A stretch of DNA of 13,565 bases from Polyangia bacterium (GCA_041686345.1 JAWLEA010000016.1:1-13565), one strand, 5' to 3'; counted from the first letter of the stretch, positions 1,183-9,344 are shown. The notes: generated by a model from the letters alone, not told the origin. Numbers and translations: made by a program.

Positions 1183-2724
1183 TTATTGATAATATTCTTT
1201 TTTCAGCCATTCATAAAACTTGATACATTGGTTTTCATCAAAATCTTCAAGTTTATAATCATCAATGTAAAGAATCCTGTTATCCCGAGTTCGGTGGACA
1301 AGCAAAAAAACATTATATTGATGAGCTCCAGGCTGACGAGTTATCCGACCCTTGATTTCCATATAGGCAGGATTTGGTTCTTTGTTATCTCTGCCATCAA
1401 TAATTTCGATTGCAGGCAGATAAGAAATATGTTTCAAATAACATTGTTCAATCAACCACTTGCTACCTTCCTTTTCATCTGAGGTATTAAAACCTCGAAA
1501 CAGAATTTTGCGATTAAACCCTTTTTTTGAAAATTCTTCGTCAACAACTACCTGAATTCTCTGTGTTTCCAAATATTTATAATACTTGTACCCAAATGCC
1601 AACCCCAAGAGTAGCAATAAAAGCAGGAAAAAGGTCAGCCAACTTTTTATCCAACTTAAATTCAATCCCAAAAAATTAACTGATTTTGAATTTTCAACAT
1701 TTTTATAATGTTTATCTGAAAAAATTGCTGCTTCCGGAGAACCACAATAAAAATAAAGAAGGTGATTAGGATCTCTGCGATTATCCTTGGCAATACCACC
1801 TTCCCTTGCTTTGTTCAAACTCTTTCCGAAACTTGAACCATTCAGCAATTGTCGGTAAAACTCTGAAGGATAAATTTCAGTATTCTGATCAATAAGATCG
1901 TAAAGAGTTCCAATATAATGTCTGGTATTGGAGACAAGCCAGGACTTGGCAAATTCTAATCCCTCCTGATGGTTATTTCCCCCGCAGGAATGGGAAAAAA
2001 CCAACCAGGGCATAGAACCGGTTTTGCCAATATCTCTGATCTGATCTGCAGAAAGAATTCCGTCACTGAGTTTCCAACCACATTTCCTGCCATTATCAAC
2101 GAGGTGACCAATATAATGAATCAAATCGTATTGTTTTATATATTTTTTCATCTCGGCACAACCGGGGTTGGTTTTATATCTGACTTTTAATTTTTTTTCT
2201 TTTCCCAGTTGCTGAAAGAGGGACTGCCCTTCTTCCCAACTCTGAGGAAGATTTTGCTCCGGATCGGAAACAACAATCAACAGATCCAGAGGATAAAAAT
2301 ATCCCTTTTTAATTTTTCTGTGTGAGCTTTCGGAAACCAGGATTCTGCCCAGATAAAAACGATGCAGAGCAAACTCATTGTCAAAAACAAGCAATTCCCA
2401 AGGAAGATGAAATATTTCCTCATCAAGAGTCAGAGTAAGATTACCTCTGGCTTGGGCAAGATTTCTGATTATCTCGCGAGGGAGAAGAAGAGAAGTAAGT
2501 TGCTCACCACAGGCTTTGATATCTTTAAGAATTTGATTTTCCAACCGTTCTTTACCAATTGCCAAAGAAAAATTGGAAAAAATTTCCTGACTTATTTCTT
2601 CACTTAACTTTTTATTATAAATGCTAATCCCCTTGATAAATTCCCCTCCGATACTTAGAGTACAGAGAATTTTGCCTTCATGAAACACAAGGGTAAGATT
2701 CAAAAGCAGCCTTTCTGATTCCAA
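1183..2724 (-). CDS. CHAT-domain (caspase-like, clan CD) protease carrying one internal transmembrane helix and a C-terminal domain of about 125 aa with unknown function. Predicted start is TTG at 2722-2724, with no clear Shine-Dalgarno, 10 nt after the stop of the upstream gene.
   Basis: A His/Cys dyad sits in CHAT-like context: 'DLIHYIGHLVD' (H-x-G-H) and 'PWLVFSHSCGGNN' (catalytic Cys). The upstream 'LPWELL' motif is typical of CHAT N-flanks. A hydrophobic segment 'WLTFFLLLLLLLGLAFGYKYY' follows the protease domain. The C-terminal region (QVVVDEEF...EWLKKEYYQ) matches nothing I recognise. There is no N-terminal signal peptide. Confidence 0.75.
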   Translation of the reverse strand: MESERLLLNLTLVFHEGKILCTLSIGGEFIKGISIYNKKLSEEISQEIFSNFSLAIGKERLENQILKDIKACGEQLTSLLLPREIIRNLAQARGNLTLTLDEEIFHLPWELLVFDNEFALHRFYLGRILVSESSHRKIKKGYFYPLDLLIVVSDPEQNLPQSWEEGQSLFQQLGKEKKLKVRYKTNPGCAEMKKYIKQYDLIHYIGHLVDNGRKCGWKLSDGILSADQIRDIGKTGSMPWLVFSHSCGGNNHQEGLEFAKSWLVSNTRHYIGTLYDLIDQNTEIYPSEFYRQLLNGSSFGKSLNKAREGGIAKDNRRDPNHLLYFYCGSPEAAIFSDKHYKNVENSKSVNFLGLNLSWIKSWLTFFLLLLLLLGLAFGYKYYKYLETQRIQVVVDEEFSKKGFNRKILFRGFNTSDEKEGSKWLIEQCYLKHISYLPAIEIIDGRDNKEPNPAYMEIKGRITRQPGAHQYNVFLLVHRTRDNRILYIDDYKLEDFDENQCIKFYEWLKKEYYQ

Positions 2725-2734
2725 ATCAACAGAA

Positions 2735-3571
2735 TCAATATTTTTCTATTATGGAAAAACTAACATTTTTCCCATAGGGAAAGAGGTAGTTGCTCTTTTG
2801 GTGGCCGGCTGGAAACCCAGCAAACAAAGGTATTTTCAAGTGATATTTTTTGATCAGATTGATGAAAATACTTCCGGGATTTCTACAGCCGGAAAAAGAA
2901 CCCATGATAAGTGATTTTGCCTGTTTGATATTAGTGGAAATAAGAAGATGATTCAACATTCGATCAATCTTATAAGGGGGCTCGTTAACATCTTCGAGAA
3001 TCACAATCTTGTCTTTGTAATCAGGTTCACAAGCAGTAGCTGTCATGGAACAAAAGGTTGCAAGATTCCCTCCCAATAATTCTCCAGTCAATTCGGAATG
3101 ATTTTCACATTGAAAGAGAGGTGATATTCCAGGCAATTTTCTAAAATTAAAAGAAATACTGTCAAAAAATTCCAAAATAAATTGCAAAGATTCTCTTTCA
3201 AGTAAAGGAAGTTGGGTTAAAACTGGGCCGTGAAAAGAAGCAACTCCCATCTGGCACCACAATTCCAGCAATATGGTAATATCTGAAAAACCCACCAGAG
3301 GCTTGGGGTTATTGCTCAAAGCAGTTCTCAACCTTTTATGATCTAATCTCATTGCTCCGTATCCACCCCTGGCAGCCAAAATTAAATTGATTTTTTTATC
3401 ATTAAGAGCCCTGATTATACTCTCAGTACGTTCTTTGTCATCTCCTGCCAAATATTTTGTATCTGATTTTTTAACAGCAAAAATCCTGAAAGGAAGCTTC
3501 CTCAACAGTTCCAAACCTTGATTAAATCTTGACAACTGAACAGGTCCGCTTGGAAAAACAATACCAATCAA
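2735..3571 (-). CDS. ldcA: LD-carboxypeptidase, peptidase family S66 (LdcA/MccF-like), 278 aa. TTG start with a strong GGAGGTG Shine-Dalgarno 6-7 nt upstream.
   Basis: The N-terminal 'IGIVFPSGPV' matches the S66 consensus IGIIAPSS. 'GGYGAMRL' is present. The nucleophile motif is 'GFSDIT' (Ser). A C-terminal 'GHQ' His lies near 'FPAGH'. A TGA stop sits immediately upstream in frame, so the TTG is the first possible start. Confidence 0.85.
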   Translation of the reverse strand: MIGIVFPSGPVQLSRFNQGLELLRKLPFRIFAVKKSDTKYLAGDDKERTESIIRALNDKKINLILAARGGYGAMRLDHKRLRTALSNNPKPLVGFSDITILLELWCQMGVASFHGPVLTQLPLLERESLQFILEFFDSISFNFRKLPGISPLFQCENHSELTGELLGGNLATFCSMTATACEPDYKDKIVILEDVNEPPYKIDRMLNHLLISTNIKQAKSLIMGSFSGCRNPGSIFINLIKKYHLKIPLFAGFPAGHQKSNYLFPYGKNVSFSIIEKY

Positions 3572-3715: not shown

Positions 3716-4558
3716 CTATTTTTCATCTTTTTTCTTTTTCTTGCTTTTCTTTTTCTTACTTTTCTTTTTCTTGCTTTTCTTTTTCTTACTTTTCTTTTTC
3801 TTGCTTTTCTTTTTCTTTTGTTTATCTTCACTTTGTTCAGGCTCTTCAGGTGCTGAATCAGAACTCTTTTCCGATTCAGAATCATCGGAATCGGTTTCAG
3901 GTGTTTCAAGTTCTGCTTCTTCCAGGTTAGAAGTATCTTCCGAAGTCTCTTTGTTTTCATCTTTTTCAGAAACTTCATCTGTTTCTTCCTCAACTTCGTC
4001 TTCCTCAAGAGTTTCTTCTTCCTCCGCAGAAACATCTGTTGCCGGGGAGGTTTCTTCCTCAACTTCGTCTTCCTCAAGAGTTTCTTCTTCCTCCGCAGAA
4101 ACATCTGTTGCCGGGGAAGTTTCTTCCTCAACTTCGTCTTCCTCAGGAGTTTCTTCTTCCTCCGCAGAAACATCTGTTGCCGGGGAAGTTTCTTCCTCAA
4201 CTTCGTCTTCCTCAGGAGTTTCTTCTTCCTTATTTCTGATTGGTTCTTCCAACTGAATTTCGGAATCAGTCAACTTCTCCATTTTTTTGAGATTGTCAGC
4301 GCTGAGTTCCACCCAAGCCAATTCCATTTGACTGTCGGAATCACGTTTAACTTTTTCTTTGACCGATTTTACAACACAATCACCCTCTATTTCCATGTCT
4401 TCGGTTTTTAATATAATTTTCAATTCTGTTGCAACAGGCATGGGTTTTTCTTCTGTAATTCTTATTTTATTGGAAGAACTGATAAAAATCTGTGCATCCT
4501 CAGTCAGAAGTATATCTCCATAAAAAACATTTCCTTGCATTGCTTTATCTTTACTCAT
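3716..4558 (-). CDS. Charge-block protein with three parts: an N-terminal globular domain of about 95 aa, 3.4 tandem copies of an acidic 23-aa repeat (EEETPEEDEVEEETSPATDVSAE), and a C-terminal (KKKKS)6-KKKKKDEK tail. The likely start is the ATG at 4558 (MSKDKAMQG...) with a GGAGA Shine-Dalgarno. The ORF track begins at a TTG at 4603 that lacks one.
   Basis: The long ORF spans the entire repeat region in one frame. The repeats are near-identical at DNA level (69-nt period). The extreme composition is consistent across the ORF. The N-terminal domain is non-repetitive (ILLTEDAQIFISSSNKIRITEEKPMPVATELKIILKTEDMEIEGDCVVKSV). Confidence 0.6.
   Translation of the reverse strand: MSKDKAMQGNVFYGDILLTEDAQIFISSSNKIRITEEKPMPVATELKIILKTEDMEIEGDCVVKSVKEKVKRDSDSQMELAWVELSADNLKKMEKLTDSEIQLEEPIRNKEEETPEEDEVEEETSPATDVSAEEEETPEEDEVEEETSPATDVSAEEEETLEEDEVEEETSPATDVSAEEEETLEEDEVEEETDEVSEKDENKETSEDTSNLEEAELETPETDSDDSESEKSSDSAPEEPEQSEDKQKKKKSKKKKSKKKKSKKKKSKKKKSKKKKKDEK
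3741..3830. repeat. 30-nt-period tandem repeat, 3 copies (TTTTCTTGCTTTTCTTTTTCTTACTTTTCT), that encodes the (KKKKS)n tail.
   Basis: Direct reading of 3741..3830. Confidence 0.9.
3978..4230. repeat. 69-nt tandem repeat in about 3.5 near-identical copies, with unit starts at 3991, 4060, 4129 and 4198. It encodes the acidic 23-aa repeat.
   Basis: The unit is 'CAACTTCGTCTTCCTCAAGAGTTTCTTCTTCCTCCGCAGAAACATCTGTTGCCGGGGAGGTTTCTTCCT'. Copies differ by 1-2 SNPs (caagag/caggag, ggagg/ggaag). Confidence 0.9.
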
Positions 4559-4664: not shown

Positions 4665-5966
4665 TCAAGCCGATTGAGGAGAACCACAATAAGGACAAAA
4701 CTTGGCTCCCGGTGACAACTCTTTTTGACATTTTACACAAACAGGCTTGGCTGCTTGTTCCTGGTTTGAACCACAATTGGGGCAAAATTTGGAACCTTTA
4801 ATAATCGGTGTCTGACATTTGATACACGGAACTTTTTCTTGCTTAGATTCAAACTTGTTTCCACAATTAGGACAAAATTTAATTCCCGGTCCTACCGGAT
4901 AATTACATTTAGGGCATTTCTGTCCGGCAGCCTGCTGATGACCATGCTGCTGCCGAGTATGTTGTTGTTTACCATGTTGCTGCTGATAACCTTGTTGGGC
5001 TCCCATACCAGCCGCTGCTCCCATACCGGCCTGTTGGCGCATTTGTTGCTGGTGGGGAGGCATTCCACCCTGAGGAGGCATTCCACCCTGAGGAGGCATT
5101 CCACCACCCTGCATCCCGGGCGCCATTCCCTGGGACATCATTCCGGGCATCATAAACCCCATACCGAGTCCCATGCCCATGCCCATACCGCTTCCGGCAA
5201 CTCCACCTTCGTTCTGGGCAGCATCTCTCATGGCATAGCCCATTTGATATTGCTGAAATGCAGGCATGCTTTCTTCGAAAAGACCAAGACCAGAACGTTC
5301 GTCGATCTTTTTCTGTACTTCCTTGGGAGGACTGATGGCGTTGATACGCAAATCTTCCAACTCAAGTCCGTTCTTGGCAAAATCCTGAGCCAACCTTGCT
5401 TTGCAAGCAGCTGTTACTTCATCATACATTGCAGGCAGATCAAAAATTGATTTCATTACCTCGCCAAGAACATCGGTCATTCTTTGCACGACTGAATCAC
5501 GAACCCAATTGGCAAGATCTTTGGCAGAATATGTTTTACTGGATTTGAGTCTCTTATTGCTGAAAAGCACCGGATCGACAATTTTATAAGTCATAGTACC
5601 GAATGAACGAAGTCGAACAACTTTCAAAACGGAATCCCTAAAAGAAATGGGTTCTTTTGTGCCCCATTTTTGATCGTCAATCAAACCGGTATCAACAAAA
5701 ACAACCTCAGCTTTAAAAGGTGTTTGACCTCCAAAAGGAAGATTGATCAACTTGGAAAGAATTGGCAAATTAGCTGAAGTCAGGGTATGACGACCTGGAC
5801 CAAATGAATCCAGTGCCTGCCCTCCCCTGTAGAAAATTGCTGTTTGGGCTTCCCTGACAATTAATTGTGCTCCCAGCTTGATATCCGCATTGAGATCTTC
5901 TGGAAGACGCTTTGCCATTACTTCACGGGTTTGATCTTGAAATTCCAGTAATTCTATTATAGCCAT
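4665..5966 (-). CDS. SPFH/Band-7 (stomatin/prohibitin-like) domain protein of the COG4260 / B. subtilis YdjI type. It has a Gly/Met/Gln-rich low-complexity linker and three C-terminal zinc ribbons. ATG start with a GAGAGGAA Shine-Dalgarno.
   Basis: The N-terminal 'MAIIELLEFQDQTREVMAKRLPEDLNADIKLGAQLIVREAQTAIFYRGGQALDSFGPGRHTLTSANLPIL' resembles the YdjI family. The region of about 200-215 is coiled/EA-rich. The linker reads 'GMGMGMGLGMGFMMPGMMSQGMAPGMQGGGMPPQGGMPPQGGMPP'. Three ribbons each have C-x2-C-x9-14-F-C-P-x-C-G: 'CPKCNYPVGPGIKFCPNCG', 'CIKCQTPIIKGSKFCPNCG' and 'CVKCQKELSPGAKFCPYCG'. Confidence 0.85.
   Translation of the reverse strand: MAIIELLEFQDQTREVMAKRLPEDLNADIKLGAQLIVREAQTAIFYRGGQALDSFGPGRHTLTSANLPILSKLINLPFGGQTPFKAEVVFVDTGLIDDQKWGTKEPISFRDSVLKVVRLRSFGTMTYKIVDPVLFSNKRLKSSKTYSAKDLANWVRDSVVQRMTDVLGEVMKSIFDLPAMYDEVTAACKARLAQDFAKNGLELEDLRINAISPPKEVQKKIDERSGLGLFEESMPAFQQYQMGYAMRDAAQNEGGVAGSGMGMGMGLGMGFMMPGMMSQGMAPGMQGGGMPPQGGMPPQGGMPPHQQQMRQQAGMGAAAGMGAQQGYQQQHGKQQHTRQQHGHQQAAGQKCPKCNYPVGPGIKFCPNCGNKFESKQEKVPCIKCQTPIIKGSKFCPNCGSNQEQAAKPVCVKCQKELSPGAKFCPYCGSPQSA
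5056..5110. repeat. 21-nt tandem repeat, 3 copies (GGAGGCATTCCACCCTGAGGA), that encodes GMPPQG repeats inside the SPFH protein linker.
   Basis: Direct reading. Confidence 0.8.
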
Positions 5967-6073: not shown

Positions 6074-6559
6074 TTATCCAATTGTCTTCCTCAAGAGATT
6101 TTCTCTATCATTGAGATGAGTATCCATAGCTCTGAGGGAATTAGTCAATTTCATGAACAGGGGCTTTATGTTTTCACCCTCTGCAAATTTGGTTTCGATT
6201 TCTTCGAGAGCACTGAAAACTTTTTCCCGATGTTCTTCGAGTTTTTTGTCAAATTCAGCTATTGCCTCAATTGACTTGGTTTCTGTTTTGCTGCCAAAAA
6301 GATTACCGGCAAAACCCTGATTAGACCAACGCAAGCGGTCTCTAACCTTGGTCAGCAACATAGTTGCATTCTCTGCATCATTCATCAATGAAATTTTGCT
6401 TAGATCGGAAGTTATATTGTATTTTACCTGCTCCAGGCGATCGTGGACTTCTTTCATCTTGGCAGTTAAATAATCCCTGAAGGCGCGATCAGTGGCTCGA
6501 GATTGTGTTCTTTCGCGATAACCTTTATAACCTGGTATAATATAATCAAGTACAGCCAT
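6074..6559 (-). CDS. Hypothetical 161-aa soluble protein, predicted alpha-helical/coiled-coil. ATG start with an AGGAGA Shine-Dalgarno. Only 11 nt separate it from the upstream TM gene.
   Basis: Clean ORF with a good Shine-Dalgarno. Heptad-like charged sequence (KMKEVHDRLEQVKYNITSDLSKI...KKLEEHREKVFSALEEIETKF). No motif I can assign. Its position directly upstream of the SPFH gene suggests a partner role. Confidence 0.55.
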   Translation of the reverse strand: MAVLDYIIPGYKGYRERTQSRATDRAFRDYLTAKMKEVHDRLEQVKYNITSDLSKISLMNDAENATMLLTKVRDRLRWSNQGFAGNLFGSKTETKSIEAIAEFDKKLEEHREKVFSALEEIETKFAEGENIKPLFMKLTNSLRAMDTHLNDRENLLRKTIG

Positions 6560-6570
6560 AATTATCTCCT

Positions 6571-6927
6571 TTAATTAGTTGAATTTTGTTTCTTTTTGAG
6601 GACAAAGACAACAACAACAAGCACTCCTGCAATTAAAACCAGAAAAGGCCAGGTTCTGGCCATGGGAATAACATTGCTGGTACTGAGTAAAAGCAAAATA
6701 AAAAATGAAGTCAGAAAAAGGGAACCAGGCCACCAGTCGGTTGCACCACCTGAATAGGTAACAAAAGCTATAGCTGCAAACAGAATAGTTGGTATCAAAG
6801 GCCAAAGAGTTCCAAATCCTGGTCCATCAAAGGTAAAGGAAACAATTAATACAATTGCAGCTGCAAACAAGGTTGCAACTACCGGGATTAATGCAGATAT
6901 ACCGGAATTAGATTTTTCTTCACTCAT
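6571..6927 (-). CDS. Small integral membrane protein with about 4 TM helices. The likely start is the ATG at 6927 (MSEEKSN...) with an AAGGA Shine-Dalgarno 9 nt upstream. The ORF-track start at 6969 lacks one.
   Basis: Hydrophobic stretches: 'ISALIPVVATLFAAAIVLIVSF', 'LWPLIPTILFAAIAFVTY', 'WWPGSLFLTSFFILLLLSTS' and 'FLVLIAGVLVVVVFVL'. Tight spacing to the flanking genes. Confidence 0.6.
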   Translation of the reverse strand: MSEEKSNSGISALIPVVATLFAAAIVLIVSFTFDGPGFGTLWPLIPTILFAAIAFVTYSGGATDWWPGSLFLTSFFILLLLSTSNVIPMARTWPFLVLIAGVLVVVVFVLKKKQNSTN

Positions 6928-6972: not shown

Positions 6973-9249
6973 TTATTTTTTGGTGGTTTTTGTCTTTTTT
7001 TGCTTGAGAATTTTGAATTCCACTCTTCTGTTCTTGCGACGCAACCTTGCAGAAATATTGGCATATCTAGGTCTGTTTTTACCGTAACCTTTTACTTCAA
7101 GGCGAGAAGCTTCAACTCCTTGTTTGACCAGATATTTTTTAACTGCTTGAGCCCGTTTGCGGGAAAGCTTGAGATTATAACTTGAAGAACCGTGATTGTC
7201 GGTGTGGCCTTCGATTCTGACTTTTAAAACTTCGGGATGTTCGATCAAAATTGAAGCAACTGCATCAAGAGTTTCATAAGAACGCGATCTCAAAACAGCT
7301 TTGGCGTATTTGAAATGGATTCGTTTTTTAATACTGATTTTTTTGTAGCGTTTGCTGAGTGTAGCAACACTGCGCTTTGGTTTGCGTTTCAGACTTATTT
7401 GCAAATCCATTTTTTTGCATTTGGACATGGTGATAGTTTTTGAACGACTGAAATATTTGTCCTTTTTGAACACCACCTGATAAGCACCAGGCCTTACCTT
7501 GAGAACCACTTTTCCTTCTGGATCAGTGGAGCCTTCCCTGGTTAAGGAGTTGCCTTTCATTGTTTCGCCTTTAATTTGAACTTTAGCTTTTGACAAAGGT
7601 TTATTCTTTTTCTCACTTTTTACAAATACAGAAACAGGGCATGGTTTTGCCTGTTTGGATTTGAGTTTTACAATCAGGCTTTTTTGAGGTGTTTCCTTGT
7701 TAATTTTAACTTCAACTTCCTTGTTGTGATAACCTTTTTTCCAAAACTTCATTTTATACTTGCCGGGAGCCAATTCATAGGAAACAAAGCCACCGGATTC
7801 ATCACTTGATTGATCGCTTTTACCCAATCCTACATAGGAAATTTTAACTTTAGGCAACGGGTTTTCCTTGTCATCAATAACTTTACCAAGAATAATTCCT
7901 TTGAATTCCTTTTTGTCTACTTCCTTTATCTTTTCCTTGACCACTACTTTAGGCTTGCAAACAGCCGGAGCTGCGGTAGTACCAGGGGTTTTGTAATAAG
8001 TGATTCCAGCAAAAAGATTGTAAACGGGCAAAGAAGGAGAAACTGCATAACCTGGATAATCAAGTGCCAGTTCAACTCCACCCTGAACAACAAAATTTTT
8101 GGCGAATTGGTATTTCAAGCCGAAGGTCAACTGTTGGGAAAGAGCATCGTCAGGAGAACCTCCACCTGAAACATCAACTCTGTCCTGCCAGGTAAGCAGA
8201 TTGGAATCTGCTGAATCGGTAAAATAATTTAAATTGTAATCAACAAAGGGGATAATAAGATTGCCGGCAAGATTAATTGGAAATTCAAGCCCTGCAGTGA
8301 AGTTGATCCTGCTTCTGGAAACCCCCATAGCGAACTGTCTGACAACATATTGATAAAAAGGTTCCATACTGGCGTTTTCAGAAGAAAGTGGAGAATCTTC
8401 CATGAGAGCATAGGAATTGTCATAAATAAAACCGAGATTGACATGTCCTATTATTCGGAGAGGCAAAGAACCTCTAAGCCCTTTACTGTCAAAACGAGCC
8501 AAGCCGATCGCTCCAAGGGAACTGGCAGCCGGATCGGGATAAACCTGACCCACTCCACTCACAAGTTTGCCAAATCCCTGCAAACCCAAATTCAAAAAAC
8601 TGTTAACCGGATAGACATATTTGACAGAAAAAAGAAAATCTCCTAGAGCCGATTGCATATCAGGCTCGGCAGATAATACCTCATGATTTCTTTCATTTAC
8701 ATTGGCGTGGGCAAAAACAGAAGCTGAAATTTCGAAATTATGTGGCAGAAAAATTCCCCATGAAATAAGTCCTCCAAACCTGGAATTCTTTTCATTAGCA
8801 TCAGCTATAATAAAATCAGACCAGGAAAAATAATCCATTCCGTAGCCCAGATAAAAAGTCCAGGGCTTTGCGGTTGCAGCTGCAGCAGTATAACGAAGAC
8901 CAACATTTCCGTTTTTGTTGATACTGGGAAAAACCGAATAATCGGAGATAGATCTCGAAGCAGTACCAGAACTTTTTTCTGTTTTTGCAGTTTTTTCATC
9001 AGTCAACTTTGTTTTGTCGGCGTCAGATCCAGGTTTGAGTTTTTCTTGAGATGTATCATTTTGTGCAGCTTCAACTTCTTTCGATTCCGGCTTTTTATCT
9101 TTATCATCTGCAAGAGCTGCAAAAGATGATTTTTCAGGTTTTTCTTCATTTTTATTTTCGGTCGCATCAGTTGTTTTATTTTGAGCAACAGCAGAATTCC
9201 AAACAAAATTTGAAAACAATATTATTAAAAGGGAAAAAACCGCTTTCAT
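6973..9249 (-). CDS. OmpA-family outer-membrane protein of about 758 aa. It has a signal peptide, a Lys/Glu-rich disordered region, a putative beta-barrel/porin-like region, two CarboxypepD_reg-like (transthyretin-like) domains and a C-terminal OmpA peptidoglycan-binding domain. The likely start is the ATG at 9249 with a GGAGGT Shine-Dalgarno.
   Basis: Signal peptide 'MKAVFSLLIILFSNFVWNSAVAQ'. OmpA_C motifs 'IEGHTDNHGSSSYNLKLSRKRAQAVKKYLVKQGV...NRRVEF'. CarboxypepD_reg-like segments 'GIILGKVIDDKENPLPKVKISYVGLG...GGFVSYELAPGKYKMKF' and 'KAKVQIKGETMKGNSLTREGSTDPEGKVVLKVRPGAYQVVF'. The middle region is rich in aromatic/Gly alternation typical of a beta-barrel. Confidence 0.85.
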   Translation of the reverse strand: MKAVFSLLIILFSNFVWNSAVAQNKTTDATENKNEEKPEKSSFAALADDKDKKPESKEVEAAQNDTSQEKLKPGSDADKTKLTDEKTAKTEKSSGTASRSISDYSVFPSINKNGNVGLRYTAAAATAKPWTFYLGYGMDYFSWSDFIIADANEKNSRFGGLISWGIFLPHNFEISASVFAHANVNERNHEVLSAEPDMQSALGDFLFSVKYVYPVNSFLNLGLQGFGKLVSGVGQVYPDPAASSLGAIGLARFDSKGLRGSLPLRIIGHVNLGFIYDNSYALMEDSPLSSENASMEPFYQYVVRQFAMGVSRSRINFTAGLEFPINLAGNLIIPFVDYNLNYFTDSADSNLLTWQDRVDVSGGGSPDDALSQQLTFGLKYQFAKNFVVQGGVELALDYPGYAVSPSLPVYNLFAGITYYKTPGTTAAPAVCKPKVVVKEKIKEVDKKEFKGIILGKVIDDKENPLPKVKISYVGLGKSDQSSDESGGFVSYELAPGKYKMKFWKKGYHNKEVEVKINKETPQKSLIVKLKSKQAKPCPVSVFVKSEKKNKPLSKAKVQIKGETMKGNSLTREGSTDPEGKVVLKVRPGAYQVVFKKDKYFSRSKTITMSKCKKMDLQISLKRKPKRSVATLSKRYKKISIKKRIHFKYAKAVLRSRSYETLDAVASILIEHPEVLKVRIEGHTDNHGSSSYNLKLSRKRAQAVKKYLVKQGVEASRLEVKGYGKNRPRYANISARLRRKNRRVEFKILKQKKTKTTKK

Positions 9250-9344
9250 TTTTACCTCCACATACTGGTAATGTATTTTTTGGCAGACATAGTTAGTTTT
9301 TTAGCACACATTCCATAAAATTAAAATTGTATTCTGCAAGTAAT

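Follow-up and report, generated by a model that had tools for sequence, protein, structure and literature searches.

The window (the whole 13,565-nucleotide stretch of DNA that we analysed) carries a block of seven genes on its minus strand, which ends with an S66 LD-carboxypeptidase gene and the gene for a membrane-anchored CHAT protein. In the order of the block, the genes and their features are:

6973..9261, minus strand: OmpA-family outer-membrane protein with a peptidoglycan-binding OmpA domain at its C-terminus and two CarboxypepD_reg-like domains (Pfam)
6571..6927, minus strand: small multi-pass membrane protein, ~118 aa from an internal ATG (the NCBI call is 118 aa)
6074..6559, minus strand: helical protein of 161 aa, highly conserved
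4665..5966, minus strand: SPFH (Band_7_1) protein with three zinc ribbons at its C-terminus and a linker rich in Gly, Met, Pro, and Gln (Pfam)
3716..4558, minus strand: acidic protein with a conserved N-terminal domain of ~100 aa, an acidic repeat region, and a poly-Lys/Arg tail
2735..3571, minus strand: S66 LD-carboxypeptidase (LdcA-like), 278 aa, without a signal peptide (Pfam, triad, PDB relatives)
3284-3286, 2993-2995, and 2801-2803, minus strand: codons of the S66 catalytic residues Ser96, Glu193, and His257
1183..2703, minus strand: gene for the CHAT-TM-putative sensor protein, 506 aa from the probable TTG start at 2703 (ORF list, homologue alignment)
1765..2514, minus strand: CHAT protease domain (caspase-like, clan CD), residues 71-320 (Pfam PF12770)
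2104-2106 and 1984-1986, minus strand: codons of the CHAT catalytic residues His207 and Cys247
1588..1656, minus strand: single transmembrane (TM) helix, residues ~357-379 (Kyte-Doolittle, AF2 helix)
1186..1557, minus strand: C-terminal domain, probably periplasmic, ~125 aa, beta-alpha-beta4-alpha (TolB-N/CadC-periplasmic-like fold)

The open frame of the CHAT gene reaches back to a TTG at 2724 (1183-2724, 513 aa), and our residue numbers for the CHAT protein refer to this 513-aa frame. Translation most likely begins at the second in-frame TTG, at 2703, because a Shine-Dalgarno-like GAAAGG lies 6 nt upstream, because the homologues all begin with M-[NKRIE]-[LI] at that point, because NCBI annotates the same start, and because an orthologue with 85% identity (L001) has an in-frame TAA just upstream. 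The gap between the S66 stop and the CHAT start is therefore 31 nt, rather than the 10 nt that a preliminary description of this DNA had given, and is still tight. That description also raised the concern that the TTG start was wrong and the gene a fragment: the start has indeed moved, but the gene is not a fragment.

In Pfam, the CHAT protein matches only CHAT and C50, and the match to CHAT (PF12770) has 53.3 bits against a cutoff of 24 (E = 3.6e-14, residues 71-320). Its motifs are HYIGH (H203-x-x-G206-H207) and SHSCGG (C247). The dyad had been reported with the motifs H-x-G-H and SHSC-G; the dyad is intact and the second motif stands, but the first motif was misread. Conservation of the dyad, on which that report had staked its reading of the protein, holds: H207 and C247 are unchanged across an alignment of 11 family sequences, and the equivalent residues are unchanged in 74 wider relatives. 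The AF2 model (pLDDT 82) has a caspase/separase-like fold, and its CHAT domain matches separase, Csx29/TPR-CHAT, SAVED-CHAT, and DdvA in Foldseek, with E values from 1e-12 to 1e-8. We predict that this domain is a catalytically competent, caspase-like protease.

The only hydrophobic segment of the CHAT protein (residues ~359-377, Kyte-Doolittle peak 2.2) lies inside a helix of the AF2 model (residues 357-388), and about 130 of 150 related CHAT proteins have a hydrophobic segment at the same position. Most orthologues share a conserved motif, LGxRGxxPWK, in the linker between CHAT and the TM helix. A folded C-terminal domain (residues ~403-513) has a pLDDT of 84. The architecture as first described, which was a CHAT domain with its dyad, then one TM helix, then a C-terminal domain, is confirmed. 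The accompanying statement that the C-terminal domain belongs to no recognisable family is true at the level of sequence, as this domain from 10 family members had no Pfam match even at E <= 5 (including to CsgG, LpoB, and TolB_N). It is not true at the level of fold: by structure comparison, the predicted model resembles TolB-N, the periplasmic domain of CadC, LpoB, and CsgG, and 9 of its first 12 structural neighbours are periplasmic or outer-membrane proteins. Within the family, Cys500 is found in all 10 members and Cys428 in 9 of them, with P0015 lacking this first cysteine.

The S66 protein matches both Peptidase_S66 (88.2 bits, gathering cutoff 25) and Peptidase_S66C (94.9 bits, cutoff 23.7). 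Its triad motifs (GFSD, LED..E, and GH) align with those of LdcA, and Ser96, Glu193, and His257 are unchanged in an alignment of 8 orthologues, as is E197. Its best solved relative is LdcA from P. aeruginosa (PA5198; 1zl0/1zrs, E = 1.7e-29), and E. coli LdcA (5z01) matches with E = 4.8e-20. The alignment to LdcA covers residues 37-270, versus only residues 2-119 for MccF chains (E ~ 4e-14). Like LdcA, the S66 protein has both S66 domains and the Ser-Glu-His triad, and it appears to be cytoplasmic (it has no signal peptide). On the other hand, it is shorter (278 aa), it scores far below the cutoff of the LdcA equivalog NCBIfam NF008424 (123.2 versus 378 bits), and its translation is coupled to that of a CHAT protease, a link that to our knowledge has not been reported for LdcA. 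Judging from its sequence, we classify it as LdcA-like, with orthology to LdcA not assured.

The S66-CHAT pair was originally described as a two-gene module, but it closes, at the 3' end, a conserved cell-envelope cluster of seven genes in an uncultured lineage of Myxococcota. The order of the block (OmpA-like, small membrane protein, 161-aa helical protein, SPFH with zinc ribbons, acidic and possibly PilZ-like protein, S66, CHAT) is kept while the flanks vary among Obg, BirA with oxaloacetate decarboxylase, and opposite-strand genes. The identities are broadly alike in order, and not identical, across the cluster genes, as expected under vertical inheritance. The helical protein has exactly 161 aa in 7 loci (mean column identity 79%), and the SPFH protein is 69-87% identical across loci; by the same cross-locus identities, the S66 and CHAT genes both diverge much faster than these two. 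Orthologues of the OmpA-family protein, the first gene of the cluster, are 40-46% identical in five loci (L004, L005, L012, L013, and L021), and orthologues of the small membrane protein have 108-116 aa and are 46-52% identical. Profile searches of the PDB gave no significant match for the 161-aa protein, the SPFH protein, or the N-terminal domain of the acidic protein, and Pfam at lenient thresholds left the small cluster proteins unassigned; the 161-aa protein has only a weak similarity to the LIMLP_15305 family. Rfam had no match in the window.

In B. subtilis, YdjI (an SPFH protein), YdjG (a zinc-ribbon protein), and YdjH belong to a membrane-stress module, PspA-YdjGHI or SamGHI (PMC8581546; bioRxiv 10.64898/2026.02.06.704340). 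By domain content alone, our cluster is similar, with a Band_7_1 SPFH domain and zinc ribbons beside small membrane or helical proteins. The two also differ: the ydj operon has no OmpA, S66, or CHAT gene, and no PspA/IM30 domain was detected among the proteins of our cluster.

How regularly do the S66 and CHAT genes occur together? Word-index homologue searches, whether with the single protein, an alignment of the C-terminal domain, or the full alignment, returned only the identical MAG protein, the 85% orthologue, and two fragments. We assembled the CHAT family by an exhaustive search of representative proteins, and the related loci by narrower alignments. In all 11 family loci (the window, L001, L004, L005, L010-L013, and L020-L022), S66 is directly upstream of CHAT, with CHAT identities of 25-85% and locus GC contents of 34.5-69.7%. 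The S66 stop and the CHAT start overlap (ATGA) in 8 of the 11, which implies translational coupling, and no terminator was seen between the two genes, in promoter and terminator scans that performed at chance level. The pairing is not due to chance. Recurrence in related genomes, which had been named as the check on the pairing, is thus borne out, and the proposed co-transcription is likely. The remark that no described pairing of a TM-CHAT with an S66 peptidase was known also agrees with our literature search, which found no paper containing both "CHAT domain" and "LD-carboxypeptidase", and none for CHAT with S66. We note that the whole block is syntenic in the single lineage from which the 11 loci come, and that these counts of adjacency are therefore not phylogenetically independent.

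Beyond this family, the CHAT-TM-ectodomain layout is found in about 130 of the 150 best representative homologues, with ectodomains that include CsgG, LpoB, FlgT_C, DUF4384, and TPR. The neighbours are different too. Genes for TM-CHAT proteins in the wider clade directly follow an ECF sigma factor with a zf-HC2 anti-sigma factor, or a PilZ protein with HxxxCxxC, or PilZ with Rrf2. S66 was absent from all 6 of the wider-clade loci that we sampled, so TM-CHAT proteins do not generally have it as a partner; for example, P0010, which is divergent and has the same architecture, has PilZ-Rrf2 in place of S66. The paper that reclassified ECF sigma factors does not mention CHAT.

To us, the locus looks like an uncharacterised envelope-sensing protease module, rather than a phage-defence or toxin system. 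Our preferred explanation, in which we have middling confidence, is that the pair forms the final genes of a vertically inherited, seven-gene envelope operon in which the CHAT protein is an envelope-sensing transmembrane protease and S66 is its partner. The envelope theme is suggested by the rest of the cluster, as one of its proteins is a peptidoglycan-binding OmpA protein and another, with SPFH and zinc ribbons, resembles YdjI/YdjG. The signalling role is suggested by the neighbours of TM-CHAT genes in the wider clade (ECF sigma/anti-sigma, PilZ, and Rrf2), by the ectodomains found there, and by the precedent of DdvA. If so, the ectodomain would perceive a cue from the envelope or related to peptidoglycan, and this cue would pass through the TM helix and switch on a cytoplasmic CHAT protease. 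The protease might then cut a cytoplasmic target, for which S66 itself, the SPFH protein, and the acidic and perhaps PilZ-like protein are candidates. S66, whose translation is coupled to that of CHAT, would be an active, cytoplasmic, LdcA-like enzyme for the trimming of murein tetrapeptides or a related peptide; it would be made in fixed proportion with the protease and would probably be a physical or pathway partner. It is possible that the CHAT protein is a switch that senses fragments of peptidoglycan, as was proposed at the outset.

The layout of the CHAT protein is the same as that of one-component transmembrane sensors such as CadC and ToxR, but the output is a caspase-like protease instead of a winged-helix DNA-binding domain. 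Also, the C-terminal domain matches only the first periplasmic subdomain of CadC, and there is no similarity at the sequence level. A bolder idea, which we offer tentatively, is that this is a new class of signalling system: a periplasmic TolB-N/CadC-like sensor would control a cytoplasmic CHAT protease that, in this family, forms a complex with S66 and connects the state of the peptidoglycan or envelope to an SPFH/OmpA operon for envelope maintenance, and the hundreds of CHAT-TM-ectodomain relatives near ECF/anti-sigma, Rrf2, and PilZ genes would form a general family of "sensor-proteases".

CHAT proteases are understood mainly through separase and through the defence proteases that are linked to CRISPR or CBASS. 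The CHAT protease of our locus, which is intact, has the build of a one-component transmembrane sensor, and translational coupling ties it to a carboxypeptidase for peptidoglycan peptides in a conserved envelope operon. If the mechanism that we propose is correct, then caspase-like proteolysis would join the known routes by which envelope signals cross the inner membrane of bacteria, and a connection between regulated proteolysis and the enzymes of cell-wall recycling could be put to the test. The function of the CHAT-TM-ectodomain clade, which is large and unstudied, would also become approachable for the first time.

A simpler explanation, which we consider rather unlikely and still take seriously, is that S66 and CHAT are operon neighbours that share no mechanism: S66 would be a housekeeping LdcA, CHAT would act independently, and the gene order would just be inherited. 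This would fit with all of the loci being from one related lineage with synteny across the whole block, with the ordinary triad of the LdcA-like S66, and with the different neighbours of TM-CHAT relatives outside of the family. However, the adjacency has outlasted a drift in GC content from 34% to 70% and the rearrangement of the flanks, and a stop/start overlap in 8 of 11 loci implies that translation of the two genes is coupled. Nor does S66 look like a typical housekeeping LdcA, given 123 bits against the equivalog's cutoff of 378 and a divergence that, like that of CHAT, is much faster than that of the SPFH and 161-aa genes. Even if the genes are only neighbours, the analysis still yields a clear annotation of an envelope gene cluster that is specific to this lineage.

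The envelope-sensing reading places the protease domain in the cytoplasm and the C-terminal domain in the periplasm. We infer this N-in topology because the CHAT protein has no N-terminal hydrophobic segment or signal peptide (by Kyte-Doolittle), because the K/R bias around the TM helix is N-in in 92 versus 21 of 138 relatives, because the nearest folds of the C-terminal domain are mostly periplasmic or outer-membrane, and because of its conserved pair of cysteines. The reverse, in which CHAT is extracytoplasmic and acts on envelope proteins and the C-terminal domain is cytoplasmic, seems quite improbable, since neither a signal peptide nor an N-terminal TM helix is there to export a 350-aa domain. 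In its favour, the TM helix of the window protein is flanked by 1 K/R on its N side and 3 on its C side, a distribution that by itself speaks against N-in, and P0002, P0003, and P0007 are also richer in K/R on the C-terminal side. Furthermore, the CHAT domain of DdvA from Myxococcus xanthus (PDB 8rot) is periplasmic (PMC11506125). DdvA, a transmembrane anti-sigma factor, is a membrane CHAT protein for transmembrane signalling, and its proposed role is to turn a signal from outside the cytoplasm into a response within it, by means of proteolysis (PMC11506125). Both it and our protein are single-pass membrane CHAT proteins of Myxococcota with a His/Cys dyad (Foldseek E = 9.5e-9). But the CHAT domain of DdvA is C-terminal, behind TPR and scaffold domains, and a cytoplasmic zinc anti-sigma domain (ZAS) is bound to the ECF sigma factor DdvS. 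In our protein, CHAT is N-terminal and probably cytoplasmic, there is no TPR or ZAS, and the ectodomain is TolB-N/CadC-like. Indeed, the CHAT protein has neither a zf-HC2 nor a TPR domain, and the window has no sigma factor gene.

CHAT proteases are recurrent in defence systems, and it was suggested that the locus might be an abortive-infection module; CHAT would then be an anti-phage effector (as in type III-E Craspase or SAVED-CHAT), and S66 an accessory. We now think that this is improbable. The fold does match Csx29 (the TPR-CHAT of Craspase) and SAVED-CHAT, with the dyad and with Foldseek E values of 1e-11 to 1e-9, and these proteins, which belong to defence systems (PMC11506125), offer a paradigm of a protease that is switched allosterically. 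Beyond the fold, the analogy to Craspase fails, as there are no TPR or Cas domains. Our locus has no TPR or SAVED sensor, no Cas7-11, no CRISPR or CBASS genes, and no CRISPR-like repeat array in the window, and its CHAT protein is anchored in the membrane and encoded in a chromosomal envelope operon. PADLOC found nothing in the six proteins that are encoded by CHAT and the genes upstream of it as far as the small membrane protein, a search of phages was empty, and the single match on a plasmid was to the CHAT domain only. The block sits amid housekeeping genes (Obg and BirA), the order of identities across its genes is broadly alike (not identical) and looks vertical, and the composition of the window is not anomalous.

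The S66 family includes the MccF immunity enzymes, and the N-terminal domain of our S66 aligns to MccF (E ~ 4e-14), but the idea of a toxin/immunity pair, in which S66 would confer MccF-type immunity to a peptidyl-nucleotide or else be an antidote to CHAT, is highly improbable: full-length S66 best matches LdcA (E ~ 1e-29) and is similar to MccF over residues 2-119 rather than across the full length that includes the substrate-specificity region of a microcin C immunity enzyme, its 278 aa (versus 336-371 aa for the matched MccF chains) leave little room for an extra substrate loop, Pfam found no microcin-type biosynthesis genes in the window, PADLOC had no match, and neither the gene order nor the setting in a block of seven genes is like that of toxin-antitoxin loci.

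Finally, the acidic protein, which is one of our candidate targets, is encoded directly upstream of S66 and is a variable and conserved member of the cluster, with tandem repeats (6 orthologues aligned). In that alignment, no c-di-GMP-binding RxxxR motif is visible. Its N-terminal domain may nevertheless be PilZ-like: compared to the PilZ proteins that neighbour three other TM-CHAT genes, hhalign gave a probability of 54% (E = 1.3e-4), and one of its orthologues matches PilZ in Pfam at a weak E of 0.18.

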